This document shows positions 1 through 56,062 of a DNA stretch of 64,000 bases, piece by piece. The position numbers and the translations under genes were made by a program. How positions within the stretch are numbered: the first letter of the stretch is position 1; every line of letters starts with the position of its first letter. The notes under the pieces were generated by a model. That model made no database searches, was not told the DNA's origin, and saw only the letters and a list, made by a program, of their open reading frames with translations. This stretch comes from Bacilli bacterium (GTDB lineage Bacteria > Bacillota_I > Bacilli_A > RF39 > UBA660): contig JAFUTX010000017.1 of the NCBI GenBank assembly GCA_017484065.1, positions 430 through 64,429 of the forward strand, written 5' to 3'.

Positions 1-108
1 ATAAAGGACTGGGCGAAGACCGAAAGCATTGTACGGGTCGCCGTAGCCGTTGACAAGGCCACTGGGATACACGGAAGCCACGTAGCCGGAGGCATCAGCA
101 CGCGGAGT
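1..108 (-). other. A-depleted, GC-rich last ~36 visible codons of the CDS; candidate DGR variable region
   Basis: By my count this stretch is ~59% G+C with only ~13% A on the coding strand. Codons are CTT/CGC/GTC/CCG/GGC/GCC/TCC rather than the TTA/AGA/GTA/GGT-type codons used in the rest of the gene. There is a run of NNC codons (GCC TCC GGC TAC .. GTC AAC GGC TAC GGC GAC). The peptide is WLMTPRADASGYVASVYPSGLVNGYGDPYNAFGLRPVLY. Confidence 0.4.
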
Positions 109-1527
109 CATTAACCATTGATACCAACCATCATATAAATAATTATTACCTCTACAGAACGTTCTATCACCTTGGCTCCAAGTATATAATGCATAACTAT
201 CACATAAAGCTTTATTACTAGTTGATCCACCACTTGTTGCATAACCATAATCACTTGGATACATCATACCAAATGGCCCCGTCCAAGTAAGTGGATTATA
301 ATTATTTATTGCTTGGTTAGTTCTTTCTGCTTCATACCATTTTGAAGATATCATTGTTTGATAAAAATATTGGTCACCACTTGTTGCATTATATCCACCT
401 AAATAATATGTTGCATCATCTACCAGATTTTTACTATTAACATTCATTCCACTTCCGACAAAATTCACATCTAATCTTTCCATATACCAATTTGTACTAC
501 CATTGAAATTTTCATATACTAAATTATTATATGAACTATCATAAGTACTATTATAGTAAGCACCTAATACTTTCTTTGCATCTGATGTTTCCCAGTTATT
601 GTTATAAATATAGGAACTACAAGCTTTTGTTTCCCAATTTATATTGCTATCTCTACAAGCTTCACTATATGAGTATCTACCTATATTTTCATTTCTTATT
701 ATTTTTACTCTAGACTCACCAGTCCCATCATCAGTTGATGAACCCGTAACATTGTTCATAACACCTATTATTCGCCATAGTTCATTATTAAACTTAACAT
801 AGTTTTTAGGGTTACTACCCATATATCTTAAGTTATTATCACTTGTTCCATCATAATACATTTCATCAGTATTATTTGAAACTATACTAGTAAGATAAGT
901 TACTGCATTTACTGGATTAAAGTTCTTAAGTTCTCCATATACGGTTACTTTACCTTCCCAAGCCTTATCCATCTCTGTTTTCGGAGCATCTTCATCTATC
1001 CATACTCTTAATGTAAAAGTTCTTCTTTCATTACCTGTTAAGAAACCACTATCTAAGATTCTTGTATCATAAGCTTCATTATTTAATAAAGTAGATGTAG
1101 ATTCATAACTATTTATTGGGTTTATCCCATTATCGTCAATTACTGCATCTAAATATGTTAAATCAAATCTATCAGAACTAGCTACACTAGTTAAACTTTC
1201 TAGATTAATATTATAAGCTATATAGCTATCACAACCATTTACTAATGTAAAAGTATAACCATCTAATTCCATTCCTTCTCTATCAAGAATTGGAAAAGCA
1301 TCTTCTAAAACTATAGCATCTCCTTCAGTATTTCTATCTATTTCTAATGATATACATGTACTTGCTACTTCATTTTTACCATTTTGTGTTCTTACTCTAA
1401 TCCATAAAGCTAAAGTTGTACCTATCATTAATAAAAGTATAAAAATAATTATTAAGCCTCTTTTTACGTTTTGGGTTATCTTTCTATGAAAAATACCCCC
1501 CCCCCGAATGTTTGTTTGATAATCCAT
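1..1527 (-). CDS. Membrane-anchored surface protein with its C-terminus cut by the window edge (509 codons visible). It carries an in-frame G10 tract and is a paralog of 53516..54772.
   Basis: Absent from the supplied ORF track because there is no stop inside the window. My own minus-strand translation finds GAAAGGTG, 11 nt, then ATG at 1527..1525. The product begins MDYQTNIRGGGIFHRKITQNVKRGLIIIFILLLMIGTTLALW. The frame stays open for exactly 509 codons down to position 1. Residues ~60-190 align by eye with the 53516..54772 product (C-x-L, YTF, N-x-C, WIDEDxP). Confidence 0.8.
   Translation of the reverse strand, partial: MDYQTNIRGGGIFHRKITQNVKRGLIIIFILLLMIGTTLALWIRVRTQNGKNEVASTCISLEIDRNTEGDAIVLEDAFPILDREGMELDGYTFTLVNGCDSYIAYNINLESLTSVASSDRFDLTYLDAVIDDNGINPINSYESTSTLLNNEAYDTRILDSGFLTGNERRTFTLRVWIDEDAPKTEMDKAWEGKVTVYGELKNFNPVNAVTYLTSIVSNNTDEMYYDGTSDNNLRYMGSNPKNYVKFNNELWRIIGVMNNVTGSSTDDGTGESRVKIIRNENIGRYSYSEACRDSNINWETKACSSYIYNNNWETSDAKKVLGAYYNSTYDSSYNNLVYENFNGSTNWYMERLDVNFVGSGMNVNSKNLVDDATYYLGGYNATSGDQYFYQTMISSKWYEAERTNQAINNYNPLTWTGPFGMMYPSDYGYATSGGSTSNKALCDSYALYTWSQGDRTFCRGNNYLYDGWYQWLMTPRADASGYVASVYPSGLVNGYGDPYNAFGLRPVLY
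1496..1505 (-). repeat. Homopolymeric G10 tract (C10 on the + strand) in codons 8-11 of the CDS; candidate slipped-strand phase-variation switch
   Basis: Read directly: ATT CGG GGG GGG GGT ATT. G10 keeps the frame open. G9 gives a stop at TAA after 6 more codons. G11 gives a stop at TAG after 4 more codons. Confidence 0.9.
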
Positions 1528-1994
1528 TTTTTTAACAACACCTTTCGTATTTCTATTCTATCTAAACTAATTTTATCACAATTAATTATACTATTTCAAG
1601 TTATTTATAACCAAGTTTGTTTATAATAACACTAGATGACATTATAAGTTATATTTGTTAACAAAAAAGTTTGACATTTACATTTACTACCCTAGGAACA
1701 ATATAATAAATATCTGTAATTAAATCCTTGTATGACTTTCCTTTATCCAATAATCGTTCAAATAATTTATCATAACAAAAAATTTGAATATTATGTTCAT
1801 TTATATATCCATGATTAAATAGTTCTAATGTAAGTATATTATGTTATTCAGGAAAAAAGATGTATGGGTTATACATCTTTATAGGTTAAGCATCAATTAT
1901 TTACTAGCTCCCACATATTTTGGAAAAAAATATAGTTGCAATCCCATTAACTTTAGATGATGTGTTAAGACTATAAAAAAAATAAAAAATAGCA

Positions 1995-2023: not shown

Positions 2024-2100
2024 TTACTTATGAGCAATAGTATTTTAACTCATAGATATAAAATCTTTATTAATATTATAGAAAATCAGGGGTGATTTTT

Positions 2101-3201
2101 GTGTTAAAAACATATAAATATAGAATATATCCTAATAGTGTTCAAAAAGAACAAATAGTTAAAACATTTGGATGTTGTAGATTTGTTTATAATGTATTAC
2201 TATCATACCGTATAGAAAAATATAAGAATAATAATGTCAATATGAGTAAAATTGATTGTAATAATTATTGCAATAGAGTTTTAAAAGAAGAATATCAATG
2301 GTTAAAAGAAGTAGATAAATTTGCTCTTACTAATTCTATATATAATATGGATAACGCTTTTATTAACTTTTTTAAAGGTAATTGTAAATATCCTAAATTT
2401 AAAAAGAAACATAGTGATCATAAATCATATACAACTAATTATACTAATAATAATATAGTTGTAGATTTTGATAAAAATATAATAAAACTACCTAAATTAA
2501 AAAGTGTTAAAGCAGTTGTTCACAGAAAATTTAATGGTAACATTAAAAATGCTACTATAACACAAACTCCAACTGGTAAATATTTTGCATCAATATTAGT
2601 TGATACCAATATTGATACATTACCTAGGATAACTAAGACTATAGGAATAGATCTAGGAATAAAAGATTTAGTTATAACATCAAATGGAGATACTTATGAA
2701 AATATAAAACCATTAAACAAATTAAAAGAAAAATTAATTATGCATCAAAGAAGACTTTCAAAAAAAGTTAAAGGAAGTAGTAATTATAAAAAAGAAAAAT
2801 TAAAGATAGCATTACTCCACGAAAAGATACATAATACAAGATGTGATTACTTACATAAGATAAGTAGCAGAATAGTAAACGAAAACCAAGTTATTATTAC
2901 TGAAGACTTACAAATTAAAAATATGATAAAGAATCACAATTTATCATCAAGTATTATAGATGCATCATGGAGTATATTGTCAAACCAATTAGAGTATAAA
3001 TCAAGATGGTATGGAAGACAATATGTAAAAGTAGATAAATTCTACGCTAGTAGTCAAATATGTAGCAGCTGTGGTTATAAGAACAGTGATATAAAAGATT
3101 TATCTATAAGAGAATGGATCTGTCCAAATTGTGGCAAAGAACATAACCGTGATATAAATGCTGCTATAAACATACTACATCAAGGATTACAACTAGTATA
3201 A
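2101..3201 (+). CDS. tnpB: TnpB (OrfB_IS605) RNA-guided nuclease
   Basis: N-terminus is [18 protein letters not shown]. RuvC motifs are [14 protein letters not shown] and [11 protein letters not shown] zinc ribbon is present ([16 protein letters not shown]). The start is probably GTG at 2101, after AGGGGTG; the track starts at 2092. Confidence 0.9.
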
Positions 3202-3928: not shown

Positions 3929-3996
3929 GCAATTAATAGGATAATTATAGCTAGTAGTGCAATCTCTAGCAACTTATGATAGATTTTATCGCTCAT
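3916..3996 (-). CDS. 26-aa hydrophobic peptide MSDKIYHKLLEIALLAIIILLIAKTI; candidate type I toxin
   Basis: Strong SD, GAGAGGAGGG, then 5 nt, then ATG (3996..3994). The peptide is a single predicted TM helix with flanking Lys residues. The stop lies inside the sRNA terminator hairpin. It is too short for the ORF track. Confidence 0.5.
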   Translation of the reverse strand: MSDKIYHKLLEIALLAIIILLIAKTI

Positions 3997-4084
3997 AAGT
4001 ATCCCTCCTCTCATCAAGTAAAGTTAAGTATTACCAAAACTGCCCTGAATAAGAGTAACCATCAACTAAACGTTCTGATGCTTT

Positions 4085-4112
4085 ATTATAAGTATAAAAA
4101 TCTAAATTTCAA
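4085..4112 (-). promoter_or_regulatory. Promoter of the toxin-like mRNA
   Basis: The minus strand reads TTGAAA (4112..4107), a 16-nt spacer, then TATAAT (4090..4085). Confidence 0.5.
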
Positions 4113-4160
4113 GCGATTTGACAAATGATGCCAAAACTTGTCAAAACCCCATTCTAAAAC

Positions 4161-15425: not shown

Positions 15426-17099
15426 CTATCTTTTTAATCTTTTATTCTTTTTACCTACATTTACAAAATAATTATTCTTATTTAACTCTTTTAAAATACT
15501 AGTCATATTATCATTAGGAGTTATTCTATTATTGTATTTATTCATGATAATCTTTTGTAAATTAAGTCCTAAATAATTATATGGGTCTATTACTATCATA
15601 CTATCTTCATTACAAGTATCAGTATAGATTTTATAATCATCTTTTTCTAAAATATCAAATATTTTATGAGCATCTGGTTTAGCTATTTTATATAACTTAT
15701 CACATATGGCATTGTGATTTTTATTTATTAAATCTTTTAAATCTAATTCACTTCTATAAATCATACTACTATTTTCTAGCATTGGTTTTAATAAATCGCT
15801 TATTATTTGATCAACAGATGTTGTTACATAATCTAAATCATAAGTATTTACATCTTCTAATATTCTACTTAAAATATTATTCATAATATTTAAATTAAGT
15901 TGATTATGAGTTACTAAATAATGATAATCATATTCATTAACAATTTTAGTAATAGTAGGTTCTACTGTTAAATATACTTTATTATCATTTAATAAATGAA
16001 TATGATATGTAATAGTTGGATACGTTTTACCTTCTTTAAATTTAGGTAAATTTAAATTATTATTCGAAATATAATTAATATCTTGTTTCATTTTATCAAT
16101 TAACAAACTATTATTGCTAATTAATAATCCTAGGTTCAACATATGCACATCTAATATTAATGAACCATCACTGCTATACTTAATATTATAAGCGTATTTA
16201 TCATTATTACTAATTTTAAATACTTCACTACTAGATATTATATTCTCTTTATCTTTTGTAACTTCATTATCTTCTATTATTTGATTTAAACGCATTTTTA
16301 AATCTCTAATTTCTAAATTAATTTCATTTTCAACATCATCTATATTTTCTACTTGAATATTTTTAATGGATTTCTTTAAGTAGTCAATATCTCTTAAGAT
16401 AGAATCTTTATCACTATAATTCTTTTCTAATACATATTTTTCTAATTCTTCTAAATAAGTATTATAGCTTTCTATATCTTCATCTTCATAATCTGGTTGT
16501 AATCTATTAAATTCATCTATTAAATCACGATAAAATTCAGGATTAATATAAGACAAACCTTGATCAACTAACTTTAATTTATAATTTTTGCCAAATGAAT
16601 CCAAGAATTTTAATACTATATGTTCATCATTTCTTCTAGCATCTTTAAACTCTGGTATTGTATTAATGATATTTTTAATATATTGAAAATTTTGAGGATT
16701 TTCACTTAATATATCTATAATGTCATAATGATAACGATAATCAGATTCGATAAGTTCTTGATTTAATAATAAGTTTAAACTATATTTAAACATTTTTAGA
16801 ATATCTCTATTTTTCTTTAATGTTTTTGCATCTAAACTTTTATCAGCAAACAAATGAATCTTTTTATTAATTATATCATTAATAAGACATATAAAATGAG
16901 TTCTATCTTCTTCGTTTAAATTAACTAATTGATTAATTATATCACCTAAAATCTTTTGGTAATTTTCATAACTATAATTATTATTAATCAGTTCATCATT
17001 TCTTAAAGAAAATAAAAAATTATTAAGATTAATCATTAATTCACTTGAATATGTTCCTTTAATCACTTTATTAATTGGTGTTTCTTCCATAAATTTCAT
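15426..17099 (-). CDS. Hypothetical 557-aa protein; weak resemblance to a catalytically degenerate RNB (RNase II/R) core
   Basis: No clear family. The segment ISNNDKYAYNIKYSSDGSLILDVHMLNLGLLISNNSLLID follows the spacing of the RNB pattern D-x-DDA..G..L.VHIADV..S.LD, but lacks the acidic residues. Confidence 0.4.
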   Translation of the reverse strand: MKFMEETPINKVIKGTYSSELMINLNNFLFSLRNDELINNNYSYENYQKILGDIINQLVNLNEEDRTHFICLINDIINKKIHLFADKSLDAKTLKKNRDILKMFKYSLNLLLNQELIESDYRYHYDIIDILSENPQNFQYIKNIINTIPEFKDARRNDEHIVLKFLDSFGKNYKLKLVDQGLSYINPEFYRDLIDEFNRLQPDYEDEDIESYNTYLEELEKYVLEKNYSDKDSILRDIDYLKKSIKNIQVENIDDVENEINLEIRDLKMRLNQIIEDNEVTKDKENIISSSEVFKISNNDKYAYNIKYSSDGSLILDVHMLNLGLLISNNSLLIDKMKQDINYISNNNLNLPKFKEGKTYPTITYHIHLLNDNKVYLTVEPTITKIVNEYDYHYLVTHNQLNLNIMNNILSRILEDVNTYDLDYVTTSVDQIISDLLKPMLENSSMIYRSELDLKDLINKNHNAICDKLYKIAKPDAHKIFDILEKDDYKIYTDTCNEDSMIVIDPYNYLGLNLQKIIMNKYNNRITPNDNMTSILKELNKNNYFVNVGKKNKRLKR

Positions 17100-24284: not shown

Positions 24285-27200
24285 TTATTTCCATGCTGGA
24301 CCTACTCCATCAGCAACAATACATTTCTTACTAGTACATTCATCTGATTGTAACCAAGTTTTAAATAGTTTACTAATATCTCTATTACTACTTCCTAATA
24401 AACCATCTAAATAACTACTAGTACAAACAACATTTTTATACTTGATAACTGTCTTATCATTTTTATATTGATTAGTAGTATCTATTATATATTGTACATC
24501 ATTATCAGATTGTATACCAACAATATCATAACATGATAATGTATCATTAGTATATCCATTTTTATTATTATCTTCCCTAATTTGTCTTATTATACTCGGA
24601 GTTAATTCAAACTTATATTCAGCTTCTGCTTGGTATGTAGCTTCCTCACTCTTTTTCATTGAATTATATTTATCAGTTTCATAATAAGATGAAAAACCTT
24701 GTTTTGGATTAGGATCAGGATTATCTAAAGATACTTGTTTAAAATTAACATTTAAGTTTACATCAGATGTAGAGCAATTATTACCAAAACATTCTGTAGT
24801 ACAGAATAATGAATCACATCCACCATTATCATCATCCGTTGAACCTGTTTTTCCTCCTGTGCTACCAATATCACATTTATCGTTTTTATAGTTTTGCTCA
24901 CAACAAGTATTCTTATTACTATCTATTTTTAATTTATCACTACAACACTTAGTACCTTTGCCATCAACTACATAACTTTCAGTAGGACAATTACTAAAAT
25001 CACATGCTCTCATTTCACCAGATGCCACTTTATCTTGGCAACATTCTCTATTACAACATTCACCTTCTGAAGCATCTATCGTAGTTAAACACTTATTACA
25101 TTGCCCAGAACTAGTATCAAAATCTTCTAGACTACAATTACTCTTGTATTCATCTTCTGTTGTTTCATAATAATATGATGAAATTCCCCAAGAGCGATAA
25201 TATCTGCCATTAATTAAATAATAATTATACTTTGAATATGTACTTTGATTACAACATTTTAGTTCTTCTTTGGCTACATCTTCACATTCATTTAATAAGC
25301 TATTATATTTTTCTTTACAACAATAAACGCCATATCTATCTTTAGTATTACAATCATCATCAGTAGTACCAGAATCCGTACATTTAAAGTGGTTGGCATA
25401 ATATTTTTCAATACAACATGATTTACCACTAGAATCAGTTACACTTCTACTACATGGGCCATTATCTGTTGATCCTCCACCGCTAGGATAGTTACCACCA
25501 TTACCACCACCACTATTATTACCAATATTATAAGTACAAGCATAAACATATGGAGCATTATCTAATAGTGATTTACTGTGTTCATTTTCAGTTCCTATTA
25601 ATCTACCAGTATTACCTGTATCATAGAACTCTCCTAAGTTTTCTATAAATATTTTTATATCATACGTTCCATTAGGAGTAGAAGATGATATAGGAAGTCC
25701 ATTGGTAAATATTTCATAATTTTCATCATCTAAAGTACCATTATAAGCTTTTATTTTTCCTATATTATTAATATCAGTACCTAAATATACTTGATATTGT
25801 TGTTTTGGTTTATATTGAATTTCTTTCGTTATAGTAGCTTTAATATAATTATTTGTTGGTATTCTTACTTCTTTAGCTAAATCACTAAAGAATTGATTAC
25901 AATTGCTACAACTAGAAGAATTAATACTACTTAAATCATATAAACTATAGCGAATACTATCAGCATTTTCTCTTTCTTCTGATGGATATTCGGTTGGATA
26001 ATTAGAACAATTATTAAATTTTGATTCTATTTTAGACTCTATAGTAATATTTCCAACCGGAGCACTACATTCCCATAGTTTTACTAATTTGTCTTTATTT
26101 AATGATGGTTCTAGAATACCTACACTTTCACCTGCTATTTTTTTATTTAACAAATCTATATAACTTTCATCATAAGTATAGTACGCATTTGGTTCTTTTA
26201 AATCTAAATTATCATACCATCCCGAACAATTATTTATTTGTTCAATAATCGATTTTAATTTATTTTGATAATACCAGACATTAGCTTTAGCACTATCAAC
26301 ATCGCTTTTTAATGTATTTGGATTGTAATCACCTACATAATAAGCAGGGCTGTAAGTGGTAATATATCTAGTTTCAAAAGTATTAGTAGTATTTTGACAA
26401 TTAACAGTTTTATTTATTGAATCATATGTACAATTATCATAATTTATTGTTTTAGAACATACTTCACCTTGATTTATTCCATTAACTATATCATCGTCAC
26501 ATCCACCATTATTTGTATTATATAAATTGTAGTATTTACTATAATTTGTATATGCATTAACTAAATAAGTTAAAGTCTGATTTATATCACTAATCATATT
26601 ATTACTATTAGACTTTTCATAGCAAGTTTTAGTACCGGTCAAATTTAACAAATATTTATCTTTATAAATAGATTTATATGAGCCACCCGACTCAGTTCTA
26701 TTAGTTTGAGCTGAGCTCCATGAAGACAATCCATATCTAAATGTATAATCTTCTTTACAATAAACAGTACAATAGTTATTATTTTTAAAACCATCTAGTA
26801 TATAAGAATTTCCTTTTTCATCCACTGCTTTATCCTTATCTTTTCCAAAGAAACAAGCATACGTATTAGTTGGTCCAGTAATCCCTGCATTATAAGAATA
26901 ATTATCACAATTATCTGCTAAACTGCTTTTTGTTTCACATGAGCCACAATAATTACTGTAATTTGAATATGGTGAACTATCTCGTGTTTCATCATAGTAC
27001 TTGTCTTTATATGCATTACAACAACCATTAGCAAAATAAGTAGGTTCATCTACTACATCACCATTAAATGTATATTGTTTAAATCCATTTGAATCAAGTA
27101 TTGTACAATCATTAGCTATTTTAGGTAGCGAAAATTCAAAATAAATATTATTTTTACTGTCAAAAGAATTTTCAAAAAATCCGATTAATCTTGCAGAAGA

Positions 27201-28754
27201 TGTATTTACTTTATCAGTAGCAATGCCACTTGCTTGATTTAATACTATCATTCGATCAAAATTTTTCTTAAATTTGTATGGAATAGCCAACTTCACTGAG
27301 AAATTTTGACCGGCAATATTTCTAAAGTCACCTTCCACAGTATAGGTTATTTTAAATCCATCTTTAGTTTCGTCTATTTGTTCTGTACCATCTCCATTAT
27401 ACTTAATATTACCATTTTTATCATATTTATATACTTTATCCATTTTTTCAGATTTCATTGAACAATTACCATAAGGAACGATGCACTCACTTAAATGGTC
27501 ATTATTAAAGTCATTTCTATCTAACTCAGTTGTATCCTTATCATAAATAACAATCATCGTAGTTGATAGTCTTAAATTTTTAGCTTGAGTATTTGTAATA
27601 ACATAATCACCATTTTCATCAACAGTCGGTTTATTAATCTTAGTATATTCAGTAGCAATTGGTTCTTTTTGCTCAAATGTCCAAACTCCAGCATATTGTC
27701 TAGTTGTTTTATAATTTTCGTCTATTAAATATGCTTTAATAGTATCAGTATCTTTGTAATTTTCTTCGTTATCAGCATATTTATGGGCTTTTTCAAACAT
27801 TTTAAAAGCTTCAGTTAAATAATCATATGTATCAGGAAGATAATGTTCTTCATCTACTAATGAATTGTAATTACAAAACACCCATCCATCTTTTTTACAA
27901 TCAAAATTTGGTTGTTTATGATTTTCTTGTTTATAATTTCCATAATCTTTTATAAATTTTACAAATGCATCATGTCTTTCACGATAACCTATAGCATTAG
28001 ATTGATTACATGATTGACTACCACATTCAAAATATACTTGGTCATCTTGAGCCATATCATAATAATATGCTAAAAATTTAACTACAAATTCAGCTACAAT
28101 TGGATTATTAGTTAATAATATATTATGATAATTAAATAATTCATTACGAGTTGTTCCATCTTCTAATTTATCCCTTAGATTTAATTCATTCCATTTATTA
28201 TTTAGATAATATAATGCCATGTCAAATCGATTAGTATTTTTTGAAAACTCTAAATTAGTTGGATCTATTTCTCTTGTACACCACCAAGTATCAATATCTA
28301 ACATATCCTTAGCTGGATCTATATTATACCCATAAACTTTTGGTTCATTAATAGTGCCTATTCTATCAGTATATTTCAATATATAATAAGAATCAGCATA
28401 TAGCGGATGATTTATTTCATAATTAGTCTGAACACCATTTACAACTTTGCCGTAATTACCAGATATTTTTTTAGCATTATATTGTAAAATATTAGAGTGA
28501 TAGTATTTTACAATCGTATTTAACTTTTGTTGTTTTTCACTGCTAAGTTCTGCTTTAAGTGAAGCATCAGTAGCATTTTTAATTTGATTATCGTAATCTT
28601 TTTCATAATACTCATCAAAACTGTGCAAATCTCCTAAAAGATCATTCGTCATACGAAATTCACTTGGGAAATCAGGGCATACACTTTCAGCATGAGTTAT
28701 ACTAGGAAACAATAGCAACAATAAAAAACATATAATTCTATTTCTTTTTAACAT
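24285..28754 (-). CDS. Giant secreted, extremely cysteine-rich protein (1489 aa), unknown family
   Basis: The signal peptide is MLKRNRIICFLLLLLFPSITHA. There are dozens of cysteines, including at least 8 CC doublets (CCNAY, CCIEK, CCKEK, CCNQS, CCNRECCQD, CCSDK, CCEQN). No sorting signal or TM is visible at the C-terminus. Confidence 0.7.
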   Translation of the reverse strand: MLKRNRIICFLLLLLFPSITHAESVCPDFPSEFRMTNDLLGDLHSFDEYYEKDYDNQIKNATDASLKAELSSEKQQKLNTIVKYYHSNILQYNAKKISGNYGKVVNGVQTNYEINHPLYADSYYILKYTDRIGTINEPKVYGYNIDPAKDMLDIDTWWCTREIDPTNLEFSKNTNRFDMALYYLNNKWNELNLRDKLEDGTTRNELFNYHNILLTNNPIVAEFVVKFLAYYYDMAQDDQVYFECGSQSCNQSNAIGYRERHDAFVKFIKDYGNYKQENHKQPNFDCKKDGWVFCNYNSLVDEEHYLPDTYDYLTEAFKMFEKAHKYADNEENYKDTDTIKAYLIDENYKTTRQYAGVWTFEQKEPIATEYTKINKPTVDENGDYVITNTQAKNLRLSTTMIVIYDKDTTELDRNDFNNDHLSECIVPYGNCSMKSEKMDKVYKYDKNGNIKYNGDGTEQIDETKDGFKITYTVEGDFRNIAGQNFSVKLAIPYKFKKNFDRMIVLNQASGIATDKVNTSSARLIGFFENSFDSKNNIYFEFSLPKIANDCTILDSNGFKQYTFNGDVVDEPTYFANGCCNAYKDKYYDETRDSSPYSNYSNYCGSCETKSSLADNCDNYSYNAGITGPTNTYACFFGKDKDKAVDEKGNSYILDGFKNNNYCTVYCKEDYTFRYGLSSWSSAQTNRTESGGSYKSIYKDKYLLNLTGTKTCYEKSNSNNMISDINQTLTYLVNAYTNYSKYYNLYNTNNGGCDDDIVNGINQGEVCSKTINYDNCTYDSINKTVNCQNTTNTFETRYITTYSPAYYVGDYNPNTLKSDVDSAKANVWYYQNKLKSIIEQINNCSGWYDNLDLKEPNAYYTYDESYIDLLNKKIAGESVGILEPSLNKDKLVKLWECSAPVGNITIESKIESKFNNCSNYPTEYPSEERENADSIRYSLYDLSSINSSSCSNCNQFFSDLAKEVRIPTNNYIKATITKEIQYKPKQQYQVYLGTDINNIGKIKAYNGTLDDENYEIFTNGLPISSSTPNGTYDIKIFIENLGEFYDTGNTGRLIGTENEHSKSLLDNAPYVYACTYNIGNNSGGGNGGNYPSGGGSTDNGPCSRSVTDSSGKSCCIEKYYANHFKCTDSGTTDDDCNTKDRYGVYCCKEKYNSLLNECEDVAKEELKCCNQSTYSKYNYYLINGRYYRSWGISSYYYETTEDEYKSNCSLEDFDTSSGQCNKCLTTIDASEGECCNRECCQDKVASGEMRACDFSNCPTESYVVDGKGTKCCSDKLKIDSNKNTCCEQNYKNDKCDIGSTGGKTGSTDDDNGGCDSLFCTTECFGNNCSTSDVNLNVNFKQVSLDNPDPNPKQGFSSYYETDKYNSMKKSEEATYQAEAEYKFELTPSIIRQIREDNNKNGYTNDTLSCYDIVGIQSDNDVQYIIDTTNQYKNDKTVIKYKNVVCTSSYLDGLLGSSNRDISKLFKTWLQSDECTSKKCIVADGVGPAWK

Positions 28755-53515: not shown

Positions 53516-54772
53516 TTAGTTTGCTATCCAGTTGGCTGTATAAGTTCTATTACCTGTGCTACCTTTTGGTATTGTTACTGTAGTTTGATTATTAATGTAT
53601 GGTTCATAATCTGTTACTTCAGTACCTTCTTCTATTTGTAAATATTTCAAATAAACTTTTGAATTGACGTAAGTCCCTCTGCCATAAGAAAAATAAATTT
53701 TAATTATGTCTTTATTTATATCTGAAATATCAATTTGTTTAATATCATTACTACCACTTATACGAATAAGACTAGATGTGCCATCATAATAATATTGATT
53801 AATATCAAACTGTTGATATGTACCATATTCTTCTTGATAATCGGTATGGCCAAGCGCTGAAATGGCATATTTTGAATTCGCACGAATACTCAAATTAGGT
53901 ATTCCATTTTCAAAAGTCATAACATGTGCATAATATGGGTGAAATATGTAATAATCATTTTCTTTTTTTGCTCCATCAATAGCCATAAGTATCGTTTCTT
54001 CATCAAACAAATTCTTACCACCACTCCATCCTGCAAAGGTATATCCTTCCCTAGTTGGAGTATTCAATGTAAAATCAATATCATTTTCATCATATTCTGT
54101 TCTGTTTATTTTTGAGATTGTTCCTCCATCTAAATCATATGTTATATGCCATTTAGTTGGATTAGTATTTTCTGGTGCTTCTGTATTTACTATTTCTATC
54201 TTACTTTCAAATACTTTGTTATTAATATCTTCATATGGTGTATCTTCATCTATCCATAAATATAGGTTATATTCTTTGGTAGTGTTTCCATCTATTTTTT
54301 CTATCTCTAATTTCTTAGCAGTATTATATCTATCTATATTTATTTCACTACTATCTGATAATTCACTTATAGTAGATGGCCATACTATATAATCATTATC
54401 ACTTATCAATGATAATCTTAAATTGTTTGTAGATAGTGTATTACTACTTTTCATATCTAACTGAATACTTACATACTCATCACTATTACAATTATTAGTT
54501 ATTTTAAAGGTATATGGTACTTGTTCTAAAGCTTCACTATCACTTAATTGATATGCATTAACTAAGTTAATTGGTTTATTATCATTAACTACTAAATCTA
54601 AACAACTAATATTTACTTGATTAAAACCTTCTTGTTGTTCTGTAGCACTCCATAAAGCGTAACTATAACTACTTACTACTATTACAAGTATAGCTACTAT
54701 TATTGAGCTTATTATTATCTTTTTCTTTTTATTATTCTTCTTTAAATAAAGATTTTTACCCCTGACTATCAT
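53516..54772 (-). CDS. Membrane-anchored surface protein: paralog-shared N-domain, a Listeria-Bacteroides-type repeat, and a C-terminal beta-rich domain
   Basis: The TM anchor is IIISSIIVAILVIVVSSYSYALW. The WIDEDTP motif is shared with the 1..1527 product. HITYDLDGG..REGYTFAGW is the List-Bact repeat signature. It has its own SD (AGGTGAG). Confidence 0.75.
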   Translation of the reverse strand: MIVRGKNLYLKKNNKKKKIIISSIIVAILVIVVSSYSYALWSATEQQEGFNQVNISCLDLVVNDNKPINLVNAYQLSDSEALEQVPYTFKITNNCNSDEYVSIQLDMKSSNTLSTNNLRLSLISDNDYIVWPSTISELSDSSEINIDRYNTAKKLEIEKIDGNTTKEYNLYLWIDEDTPYEDINNKVFESKIEIVNTEAPENTNPTKWHITYDLDGGTISKINRTEYDENDIDFTLNTPTREGYTFAGWSGGKNLFDEETILMAIDGAKKENDYYIFHPYYAHVMTFENGIPNLSIRANSKYAISALGHTDYQEEYGTYQQFDINQYYYDGTSSLIRISGSNDIKQIDISDINKDIIKIYFSYGRGTYVNSKVYLKYLQIEEGTEVTDYEPYINNQTTVTIPKGSTGNRTYTANWIAN

Positions 54773-54817
54773 AGGTTCTCACCTACTAAAGTTTTAGAAA
54801 GGCTTGTTAATTTTTTA

Positions 54818-54853
54818 TTACAAAGCCCCCCCCCGATTTTGATTTTTAGCCAT
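54818..54853 (-). promoter_or_regulatory. 11-codon leader uORF (MAKNQNRGGAL) containing the G9 tract
   Basis: GAAAGGTGTTGTTGAAT then ATG (54853..54851), then CGG GGG GGG GCT TTG TAA. The layout is homologous to the first codons of the 1..1527 gene. Confidence 0.45.
54826..54834 (-). repeat. Homopolymeric G9 tract (C9 on the + strand) in the leader of the surface-protein gene
   Basis: Read directly. This is one of only two G/C runs longer than 5 that I saw in the window. Confidence 0.9.
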
Positions 54854-54969
54854 ATTCAACAACACCTTTCAAAGTCGGTATAAATTTACCAGACTCTATA
54901 TTCTTATAAAACAATTCTATCATATTTAATAATATATTTCTATCACTTTTTAATCTTTTTTATTTTTTT

Positions 54970-55959
54970 CTAATTTAACTCTTTCATATCAATATTCATT
55001 ATTTCTAAATAATCTTTTTCTGCTTTTGTTAAATGGTTTTTCATATATTTATCATATTCTTCGTGTGCTTTGATTAATGCTTGTTCATGTGAAATACTAC
55101 CTTTAGACTTTAAAATATCATTGTGAGTCATAGTTAAGAAACTATCTAATTCCTTTATCCAATCTTCCATAGTCATCACCTTTCGTTTTAAGGCATTAAT
55201 TTCAGCAAGGTCAAGGTAAGCTGATACTAATCTATTTAATATTTCTAATTCCTCTAATGATAAATAATTTTTAGCGATTTCAGTCTCTGACCTAGTAGGA
55301 GTATCTCCCTTAAAATTTGTTAAACCTATATTATTCTTATTGCAATCTACTCTATTATATACAATTTCAGCAGCAGTTTTTTTTGAAACAGCGTAATGCA
55401 TTTTGTTTTGAACAGTTTTAAAGAAATCAATAGTAATTTTTTCTTTCGGGTTATAATCAATACTAGTAGCATAAATATCCAACACTTTTCTCCAAAAAAC
55501 TTTTTCACTAGATCGTATATCTCTTATTTTTTCTAGTAACTCATCAAAATAAGGATCATAACCATTATTTTTAAACCTTTCAACATTTAAATTATATCCT
55601 TTTACCAAATATTCTTTCAATATTTTATTTGCCCATATTCTAAATTGTGTACCACGATTAGATTTAACTCTAAACCCAATCGCTATAATCATATCAAGGT
55701 TGTAATAATTGACATTATAATTTTTACCGTCATTCGCAGTTGTTCGGAAATTCCGAACAACTGAATTTTCAATTAATTCCCCTTCTTCAAAGATATTCTT
55801 AATATGTTCATTAATTGTTGATTTTGCTTTATTAAATAAATTACCTATTTGAGATTGAGTTAACCAGATATTTTCATCTTGTAATAAAACCTCGACTTTT
55901 ACATTACTATTATCTTCATAAATCAAAAAATTGTTATCTTCTTTAATATTATTTTTCAT
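54970..55959 (-). CDS. RhuM-family protein
   Basis: WLTQSQIGNLFNKAKSTINEHIKNIFEEGEL and GFRVKSNRGTQFRIWA are typical of RhuM. The likely start is ATG at 55959, after AAAGGAG. Confidence 0.75.
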   Translation of the reverse strand: MKNNIKEDNNFLIYEDNSNVKVEVLLQDENIWLTQSQIGNLFNKAKSTINEHIKNIFEEGELIENSVVRNFRTTANDGKNYNVNYYNLDMIIAIGFRVKSNRGTQFRIWANKILKEYLVKGYNLNVERFKNNGYDPYFDELLEKIRDIRSSEKVFWRKVLDIYATSIDYNPKEKITIDFFKTVQNKMHYAVSKKTAAEIVYNRVDCNKNNIGLTNFKGDTPTRSETEIAKNYLSLEELEILNRLVSAYLDLAEINALKRKVMTMEDWIKELDSFLTMTHNDILKSKGSISHEQALIKAHEEYDKYMKNHLTKAEKDYLEIMNIDMKELN

Positions 55960-56062
55960 ATCGTTGCTCCTTTGTATCTCTTGTATATACAAATAATATC
56001 ATAAAGAACAAATGTACGTCAACAATAATTTATTATTATAAGCAAAAATATTCATATAATAA

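Follow-up and report, generated by a model that had tools for sequence, protein, structure and literature searches.

A poly-G tract with natural in-frame and out-of-frame alleles as a probable phase switch of a predicted exported lectin-like protein in a gut Bacilli genome

We analyzed a 64,000-nucleotide stretch of a metagenome-assembled genome (MAG) from a Bacilli bacterium (RF39; UBA660), namely positions 430 to 64,429 of the forward strand of contig JAFUTX010000017.1 in assembly GCA_017484065.1, referred to hereafter as the window. A minus-strand gene that runs off the left edge of the window carries ten consecutive guanines in its first codons. This run is found as G10 in three natural assemblies, where the gene is open, and as G9 in three others, where it is closed. 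We conclude that the gene is probably a homopolymeric contingency locus, at which slipped-strand mispairing would switch an exported lectin-like protein heritably between an ON state, at tract lengths of 3n+1, and an OFF state. The gene is called locus 1 (tract at 1496-1505). Two related genes carry a comparable tract behind a homologous leader, locus 2 in the window (tract at 54826-54834) and locus 3 on a different contig, L001 (tract at 2923-2931; P0004/P0127/P0128, IJ574_04660). The coordinates of all features are collected in Table 1.

The minus strand of locus 1 reads ...AAAAAAATGGATTATCAAACAAACATTC-GGGGGGGGGG-TATTTTTCATAG, with the G10 between AAAAAAATGGATTATCAAACAAACATTC and TATTTTTCATAG. 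An earlier note, made from the letters of the window alone, had placed the run in codons 8 to 11 of a frame that is open at G10, and both statements were borne out when the run was re-read and the frame re-translated at each tract length from G6 to G14. The frame is open at G7, G10 and G13, for 509 codons up to the window edge, and the complete protein has 531 amino acids (aa). At G9 the tract is followed by VFFIER and a TAA, which ends the frame after 16 codons overall; at G11 it is followed by YFS and a TAG, after 14 codons overall. The count of six codons before the TAA given in the earlier note thus stands, while the four codons that it gave before the TAG are in fact three. Gain or loss of a single G toggles the gene between the 531-aa product and a severely truncated one, as is typical of contingency loci. 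No other start codon preceded by a Shine-Dalgarno (SD) sequence lies 5' of the signal/anchor helix in locus 1. Because the tract is 3' of both the promoter-like site and the start codon, the switch would be translational rather than dependent on promoter spacing. The full-length product of the window allele is P0121, from which P0001 differs by two residues.

The length of the locus 1 tract differs between natural populations. As the earlier note had proposed, the tract was compared across metagenome assemblies, more specifically in the window and in five other assemblies (L002-L006) that were found via a 90% protein cluster. It is G10 (ON, 531 aa) in the window, L005 (ERZ28654966) and L006 (ERZ27256833), and G9 (OFF) in L002 (ERZ27256836), L003 (ERZ28653772) and L004 (ERZ28654702). 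The flanks of the tract, 45 nucleotides (nt) before it and 40 nt after it, are the same in all of these assemblies. Besides the tract, an alignment of up to 4.8 kb contains only five other variable columns, and over 2-4.8 kb the window and L005 differ from L002 and L004 solely in the tract. Close relatives that differ in tract length between conserved flanks are a hallmark of contingency loci. Because the length varies between populations, it is not fixed across strains, which is the outcome that had been named as speaking against a switch; the natural G9 and G10 alleles and the frame logic together support the proposed slipped-strand ON/OFF switch at locus 1. In the gene calls, the G9 alleles appear as a 498-aa product starting from Met34, within the hydrophobic helix, and the G10 alleles as the 531-aa product.

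Homopolymers of 9-10 bases are error-prone, and the lengths reported here are known from assemblies, not from reads. The G9 and G10 alleles might therefore be sequencing or assembly artefacts, that is homopolymer miscalls of short-read assemblies, and in three assemblies locus 1 lies on a very short contig (1970-2593 bp). We consider this explanation quite improbable. In the same assemblies, the G9 tracts of loci 2 and 3 were called alike in seven of seven cases, and the invariance of these control tracts argues against random homopolymer miscalling. G9 and G10 were each found with both assembler styles, the k141 (MEGAHIT-style) contigs and the scaffold-style assemblies. The tract base is all that separates the lengths of two contigs, 64,696 and 64,697 bp, and a metagenome consensus normally reports the majority length. 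It is an adjoining insertion sequence (IS), not the tract, that accounts for the short contigs: the scaffold-style assemblies break off some 100 nt 5' of the locus 1 ATG, probably because the IS605 element found there is multicopy. One further contig, of 64,698 bp and carrying the P0121 allele, is one base longer than the G10 contig in ENA, corresponding to one more single-base indel or to a difference at the contig end.

The tract is also far longer than base composition predicts, and it lies within the 5' coding region, as do homopolymeric contingency tracts in general. The G+C content of the window is 25.6%, and the base in question accounts for 15.8% of the tract strand. Under a first-order Markov model, 0.003 runs of at least nine bases and 0.0005 runs of at least ten are expected per window, in agreement with the earlier estimate that such a run should occur well under once. 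We also confirmed that the window holds just two of them, the G10 of locus 1 and the G9 of locus 2. On the plus strand, runs of C number 120 at length 3, 25 at length 4 and four at length 5; none has a length of 6-8, followed by one C9 and one C10. This bimodal run-length distribution is far outside chance expectation, and the gap in run lengths is the pattern of selected contingency tracts. In the approximately 115 kb of genome inspected for G/C runs, all three runs of at least six bases lie 19-22 nt past an ATG and are preceded by a 13-nt SD block. Exact copies of this block (GAAAGGTGTTGTT) occur in the window only before loci 1 and 2, and the same block is found in L001. The approximately 66 kb surrounding the paralogs P0022, P0002 and P0008 and their neighbours (L143-L146) contain no G/C run of at least six bases, no SD block and no leader. 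The window shows in addition an extreme strand asymmetry, with nearly all long open reading frames (ORFs) on the minus strand and 10,107 C against 6,304 G on the plus strand, so that the G-tracts are on the coding, presumably leading, strand.

A long G-run could also be nothing but a mutational weak point of an ordinary gene in decay, in which case the G9 alleles would be one-off inactivating frameshifts and no reversible switching would have been selected. A single mutational event accounts for the G9 clade, and two findings described below, the OFF state of locus 3 in all assemblies and the uncoupled leader of locus 2, can be read as decaying 5' ends. Nevertheless, we find gene decay unlikely. 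Runs of G9-10 stand at three paralogous 5' ends while none of 6-8 exists elsewhere, a pattern that drift at 25.6% G+C would neither produce nor maintain. Across 1.5 kb of coding sequence, the OFF alleles carry no additional disabling mutations. The leader is better conserved than the coding region when loci 2 and 3 are compared (86% against 58%), and a probable recombination patch in locus 3 is free of stops, which indicates that its reading frame is still maintained.

For the contingency locus, we propose the following course of events. During replication, slipped-strand mispairing, which we infer together with its rate and its reversibility, would add or remove a G in the run of codons 8-11. 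At lengths of 3n+1, such as G10, a ribosome starting from the ATG at 1527 would continue into the signal/anchor helix and complete the exported protein of 531 aa; from G9 or G11 alleles, only the 16 or 14 codons given above would be translated. These alleles are expected to yield no exportable product because the sole downstream in-frame ATG is inside the hydrophobic helix and is not preceded by an SD sequence. Populations would hold heritable and reversible ON and OFF subclones, and selection, plausibly exerted by host antibody, phage or niche, would shift the dominant subclone.

The product was described in the earlier note as a surface protein. Searches with the locus 1 protein sequence (P0121) gave no Pfam, NCBIfam or PDB match. 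A confident AlphaFold2 model built on a 37-sequence alignment (predicted local distance difference test, pLDDT, 81.8; predicted template modeling score, pTM, 0.78) comprises a helix at residues 21-40, a β-sandwich at about 55-200 and a mixed α/β domain at about 205-531. The best Foldseek match of this model in the PDB is the immunoglobulin A (IgA) peptidase of Thomasclavelia ramosa (9qa6, E = 1e-7, 323 columns), of which the 290-residue N-terminal domain is an enlarged C-type-lectin-like domain (PMC12237041). Judging by the length of the alignment, we infer that it is this N-terminal domain that is matched. It is followed in rank by a TasA-like archaeal bundling pilin and by chaperone-usher pilins, which presumably belong to the N-terminal sandwich, and the matches among viral structures are DUF6273 and tail-fibre proteins. 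The sequence match to PF19789 (DUF6273) is not significant, with one of the 37 relatives reaching 1.6e-4, and the likeness is structural only. Residues 205-531 or so would thus have the C-type-lectin-like fold in common with the N-terminal domain of the IgA peptidase, DUF6273 and the C-terminal domain of Legionella Lcl; in contrast to the Thomasclavelia ramosa enzyme, the locus 1 product has neither a metallopeptidase domain nor a sortase motif.

A motif (S/T)-x-A-L-W is conserved where the hydrophobic segment ends and fits a putative signal-peptidase site. The protein has no LPXTG (its C-terminus reads ...GTSLDPYILSA), and no sortase is found among the neighbouring genes, which encode an IS605 TnpB, a DUF5684 protein and a CAAX protease. 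An exported binding protein is likely because the model combines a transmembrane (TM)/signal helix with pilin-like and lectin-like folds. Exposure on the surface is plausible on the same grounds, and we retain it as a prediction, LPXTG being absent. Exported pilin-like and lectin-like proteins are a gene class that is commonly phase-variable.

The arrangement of locus 1 recurs at locus 3, where the SD block is followed by an ATG, six codons and a G9. At G8 and G11 the frame enters the TM helix (…RGGLCHNKISLSSNFNKKRFFLIVLVLILIVVGSSLALW…), and at G9 and G10 it stops. Locus 3 would therefore work in the same manner and be ON at G8 or G11; its tract is G9, and hence OFF, in all three assemblies. 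Between loci 1 and 3, the leaders are 68% and the coding regions 73% identical, and the two look like ordinary diverged paralogs with a leader that is common by descent. Within the P0004/P0127 gene, 23 of the 24 columns that vary between samples fall into about 200 nt (L001 ~3936-4129, alignment columns 2436-2629) and introduce no stops. This patch looks like gene conversion or recombination between paralogs, and would in that case add a second, recombination-based layer of variation to the family. A T8 run at L001 2980-2987, 50 nt 3' of the G9 and inside the ON frame of locus 3, is a possible second slippage-prone site; it is invariant in three of three assemblies.

Locus 2 is organized differently. 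Its G9 follows the ATG at 54853 and six codons, in an upstream ORF whose frame joins the main ORF (ATG at 54772) at no tract length: the upstream ORF stops after 11 codons at G9 and after 15 at G10, and at G8 or G11 it runs for 27-28 codons to a TGA. Because no length joins the two frames and the main ORF has its own SD sequence and ATG, the tract does not gate the main ORF by frame. From its sequence, locus 2 appears to be uncoupled, or coupled only translationally; translational coupling is speculation, as the hairpin predicted over the main SD sequence is weak. The tract is G9 in the window, L140, L141 and L142 despite five single-nucleotide polymorphisms among them.

Loci 1 and 2 encode paralogs, whose N-terminal ~160 residues align over 164 aa with 28% identity (E = 8e-15). 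The earlier proposal, that paralogous genes carry both tracts of the window at their 5' ends, is thus correct as to the paralogy, but the second tract lies in a short upstream ORF, outside the annotated gene. Starting at residue 1, locus 2 and the paralog P0022 share 57% identity in their coding sequences; P0022 begins at a conventional GGAGG-ATG and has neither leader nor tract. The 100 nt upstream are 86% identical to the locus 3 leader before the tract and 71% after it, compared with 58% in the coding region. We read locus 2 as an apparent recombinant, in which a locus-3-like leader-tract module was placed before a self-sufficient P0022-like gene. A RhuM gene lies beside locus 2 (window 54970-55992, minus strand), and KilA-N, Bro-N, ORF6N, DUF1016/YhcG and RhuM+Fic genes lie beside other paralogs (L143, L146). 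Mobile-element or phage-associated genes are thus recurrent neighbours of the family, which suggests variable islands.

The leaders of loci 2 and 3 bring up another explanation, in which the tract is a recoding or RNA element that acts by transcriptional slippage, by ribosomal frameshifting, or as a hairpin or attenuator formed by the G-run with a downstream AAGCCUUUCU. In both leaders, structure prediction pairs the G-run with a AAGCCUUUCU that is conserved and lies some 20 nt further 3'. The stem at locus 2 (54760-54836, minus strand) has a predicted energy of -21.2 kcal/mol (z = -2.9), and the same stem is predicted at L001 2920-2965. Furthermore, the G9 state of both loci encodes nearly the same short peptide (M..NQNRGGAL), and this state is invariant. 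Two or three sequences are, however, too few for covariation, and locus 1 has no downstream complement, its leader folding no better than shuffled sequence (z = -0.3). Efficient -1 frameshift heptamers require A/U in the YYY positions. The features that would mark programmed recoding are not what locus 1 presents: in-frame ON alleles exist, so that recoding is not needed there, and its run is one of G, whereas transcriptional slippage is known from runs of A/T (PMC3711429). We give this explanation very little credence. In the leader RNA, the same CCUUUC may instead pair with the SD sequence GAAAGG; the predicted pairing could reflect structure in the leader or chance complementarity between G-rich and U/C-rich segments.

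In the inspected ~115 kb, then, three genes combine a homologous leader with a G9-10 tract. A tentative extension of the contingency-locus reading is that the SD block, the ATG, the leader of 6-7 codons and the G9-10 form a portable 5' cassette, which might have been recombined among the lectin-like family to give a multi-locus poly-G phasome in which locus 2 turned into an upstream-ORF-coupled gene. If this were so, genomes with contingency loci would not be confined to pathogens, and tract switches in gut Bacillota could be graded as well as binary controls. Databases contain more than 5,000 members of the family; many are paralogs from a single NCBI 'MAG: Bacilli bacterium' (locus tags IJ574_*), evidently the genome to which the window belongs. 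Among the 120 best homologues, only the window's own protein has a GGG encoded by a G-tract in its N-terminus. Scans for AAAGGTGTTGTT-N18-34-G7 in GTDB species representatives (the source MAG is not among them), JGI metagenomes and IMG/VR found no true match, returning either chance matches in unrelated, mostly high-G+C organisms or none. The ON-state leader peptides used as a protein query gave no match at E <= 10, a query too short to be informative.

Several of these observations weigh against a contingency switch at locus 1. Since the leader-plus-tract was not seen in the other species scanned, there is no evidence that the switch is conserved beyond the lineage. Tract lengths are assembly consensus, with one length per assembly, and all six observations would be explained if the ancestor of L002, L003 and L004 had changed once from G10 to G9, so that neither recurrence nor reversibility is demonstrated by them. 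The window equals L005, and some assemblies possibly derive from the same animals or samples, which leaves about five independent populations. Variation is limited to locus 1, in small numbers: the other two G9 tracts are invariant in seven observations, where high mutability might have given variation, and the difference between locus 1 and loci 2 and 3 (3/6 against 0/7) is suggestive but not significant (Fisher p ~0.07). Slippage of the Campylobacter/Helicobacter type is raised by absent or weak mismatch repair, and the poly-G-bearing Campylobacter jejuni is without it. In the 64 kb of the window, AddAB and UvrD-like helicases are present, while MutS and MutL are not found.

The closest design among known systems is that of the pilus loci of Bifidobacterium breve UCC2003 (bbr_0113a/b and bbr_1889a/b), where maximum-depth sequencing has demonstrated replication slippage, which is enriched in vivo (Penno et al. 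2022, PMC9187656). B. breve is likewise a Gram-positive gut commensal. In both cases, a strong SD sequence and ATG open a short upstream frame (seven codons in bbr_0113a) that is followed by a G-tract and then by the body of a protein that is exported, or predicted to be so here; neither an SD sequence nor a signal peptide goes with the annotated start further 3', several loci are present per genome, and slippage restores the frame, or would do so here (PMC9187656). This layout of an SD-ATG short ORF, a G-tract and a main ORF without SD sequence is found at loci 1 and 3 but not at locus 2. B. breve, however, is a high-G+C actinobacterium, whereas the present host is a spore-forming Bacilli MAG of 25.6% G+C. 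The genes switched in B. breve encode LPXTG pilins served by a dedicated sortase; the locus 1 product has no LPXTG and no sortase nearby, which places locus 1 outside the pilus family. Finally, the B. breve reference is OFF and ON is rare, while among the natural populations compared here the consensus is ON in some and OFF in others.

The poly-G loci of C. jejuni resemble the present ones in that the genome is of low G+C, G runs of at least eight are strongly over-represented and intermediate runs nearly absent (PMC8437040, PMC539331). There too, the tracts lie in coding regions, in that case of surface-structure genes, several loci exist and the frame sets ON or OFF. In that Gram-negative epsilonproteobacterial pathogen, however, some 20-30 loci are spread over unrelated genes (glycosyltransferases, flagellar modification, restriction) without a common leader, whereas the three paralogs described here share one homologous SD-leader-tract module.

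Within the Bacillota, the 5' poly-A of Listeria monocytogenes inlA slips at approximately 1000 times the point-mutation rate, and its frameshift product has 8 aa (Orsi et al. 2010, PMC2831843), compared with 14-16 aa at locus 1. As at locus 1, the homopolymer is in the first codons of the gene, which in that case encodes a surface adhesin, and both states occur in natural strains. The inlA tract is a poly-A of 7, which the composition of an AT-rich genome favours; the poly-G of 9-10 at locus 1 goes against composition and is for this reason a stronger sign of selection. The C8 tract of group A Streptococcus mga, another poly-C/G tract of the Bacillota, switches between C8, C7 and C6 in an experimentally reversible manner (Lei et al. 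2023, PMC10330708), but its position is the 3' end of a regulator gene, and its effect on the M protein is indirect. The earlier view that poly-G/C switches are not a standard feature of gut Bacillota is fair for commensal Bacillota but too strong in general, given inlA and mga within the Bacillota and a nearly identical design in B. breve. The mechanism is already known and no new principle is involved; what is new is the organism, an uncultured Bacilli of the ruminant gut, together with the gene family and the leader-tract module at three paralogs.

Most documented cases in which repeats drive phase variation at several loci come from pathogens, and the present one from commensal Bacilli of the ruminant gut. 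Our findings suggest that gut Bacillota hedge their bets over exported binding proteins by means of such tracts. Genes of this kind are split or truncated by gene callers (531 aa as against 498 or 508 aa), so that MAG catalogues systematically mis-annotate the N-termini of the family as well as its presence or absence.

Table 1. Coordinates of tracts, leaders and associated features (window positions unless L001 is given).
Feature	Position	Strand	Remarks
Locus 1 gated gene, 509 of 531 codons in the window	1..1527	-	Predicted signal/anchor helix 21-40; β-sandwich ~55-200; C-type-lectin-like/DUF6273-like ~205-531
Locus 1 G10 homopolymeric tract, putative switch element, ON at G10	1496..1505	-	Codons 8-11 (CGG GGG GGG GGT)
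Locus 1 start codon (1527-1525), seven-codon leader MDYQTNI and C before the tract	1506..1527	-	Homologous to leaders of loci 2 and 3
Locus 1 SD block GAAAGGTGTTGTT, 13 nt	1534..1546	-	Same at all three tract-bearing loci
Promoter-like TTGAAA-18 nt-TG-n-TAAAAT	1570..1599	-	Upstream of locus 1; consensus match only
IS200/IS605-family TnpB (OrfB_IS605 and Cas12f1-like TNB domain)	2092..3201	+	Directly upstream of the locus 1 promoter region
Locus 2 main ORF, 418 aa	53516..54772	-	Family N-terminal domain and Listeria-Bacteroides repeat
Locus 2 own SD of the main ORF, AGGTGAG	54778..54784	-	6 nt 5' of its ATG; weak predicted hairpin over SD, z = -1.3, not significant
Locus 2 upstream ORF at G9, MAKNQNRGGAL, then stop	54818..54853	-	G8/G11 extends to a TGA overlapping the main ATG (ctATGA)
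Locus 2 G9 tract	54826..54834	-	In leader homologous to locus 3 leader; G9 in 4 of 4 assemblies
Locus 2 SD block GAAAGGTGTTGTT	54858..54870	-	Exact copy
Locus 3 G9 tract	L001 2923..2931		Same SD-ATG-leader context

The remainder of the window is ordinary chromosome, with genes for AddAB, GluRS, ATP-binding cassette (ABC) exporters, ClpB and trigger factor, and the contigs of relatives carry the sporulation genes SpoVA and YunB. Two long minus-strand ORFs in these housekeeping surroundings, one of 1489 aa (24285-28754) and one of 557 aa (15426-17099), have no Pfam match at 1e-5.

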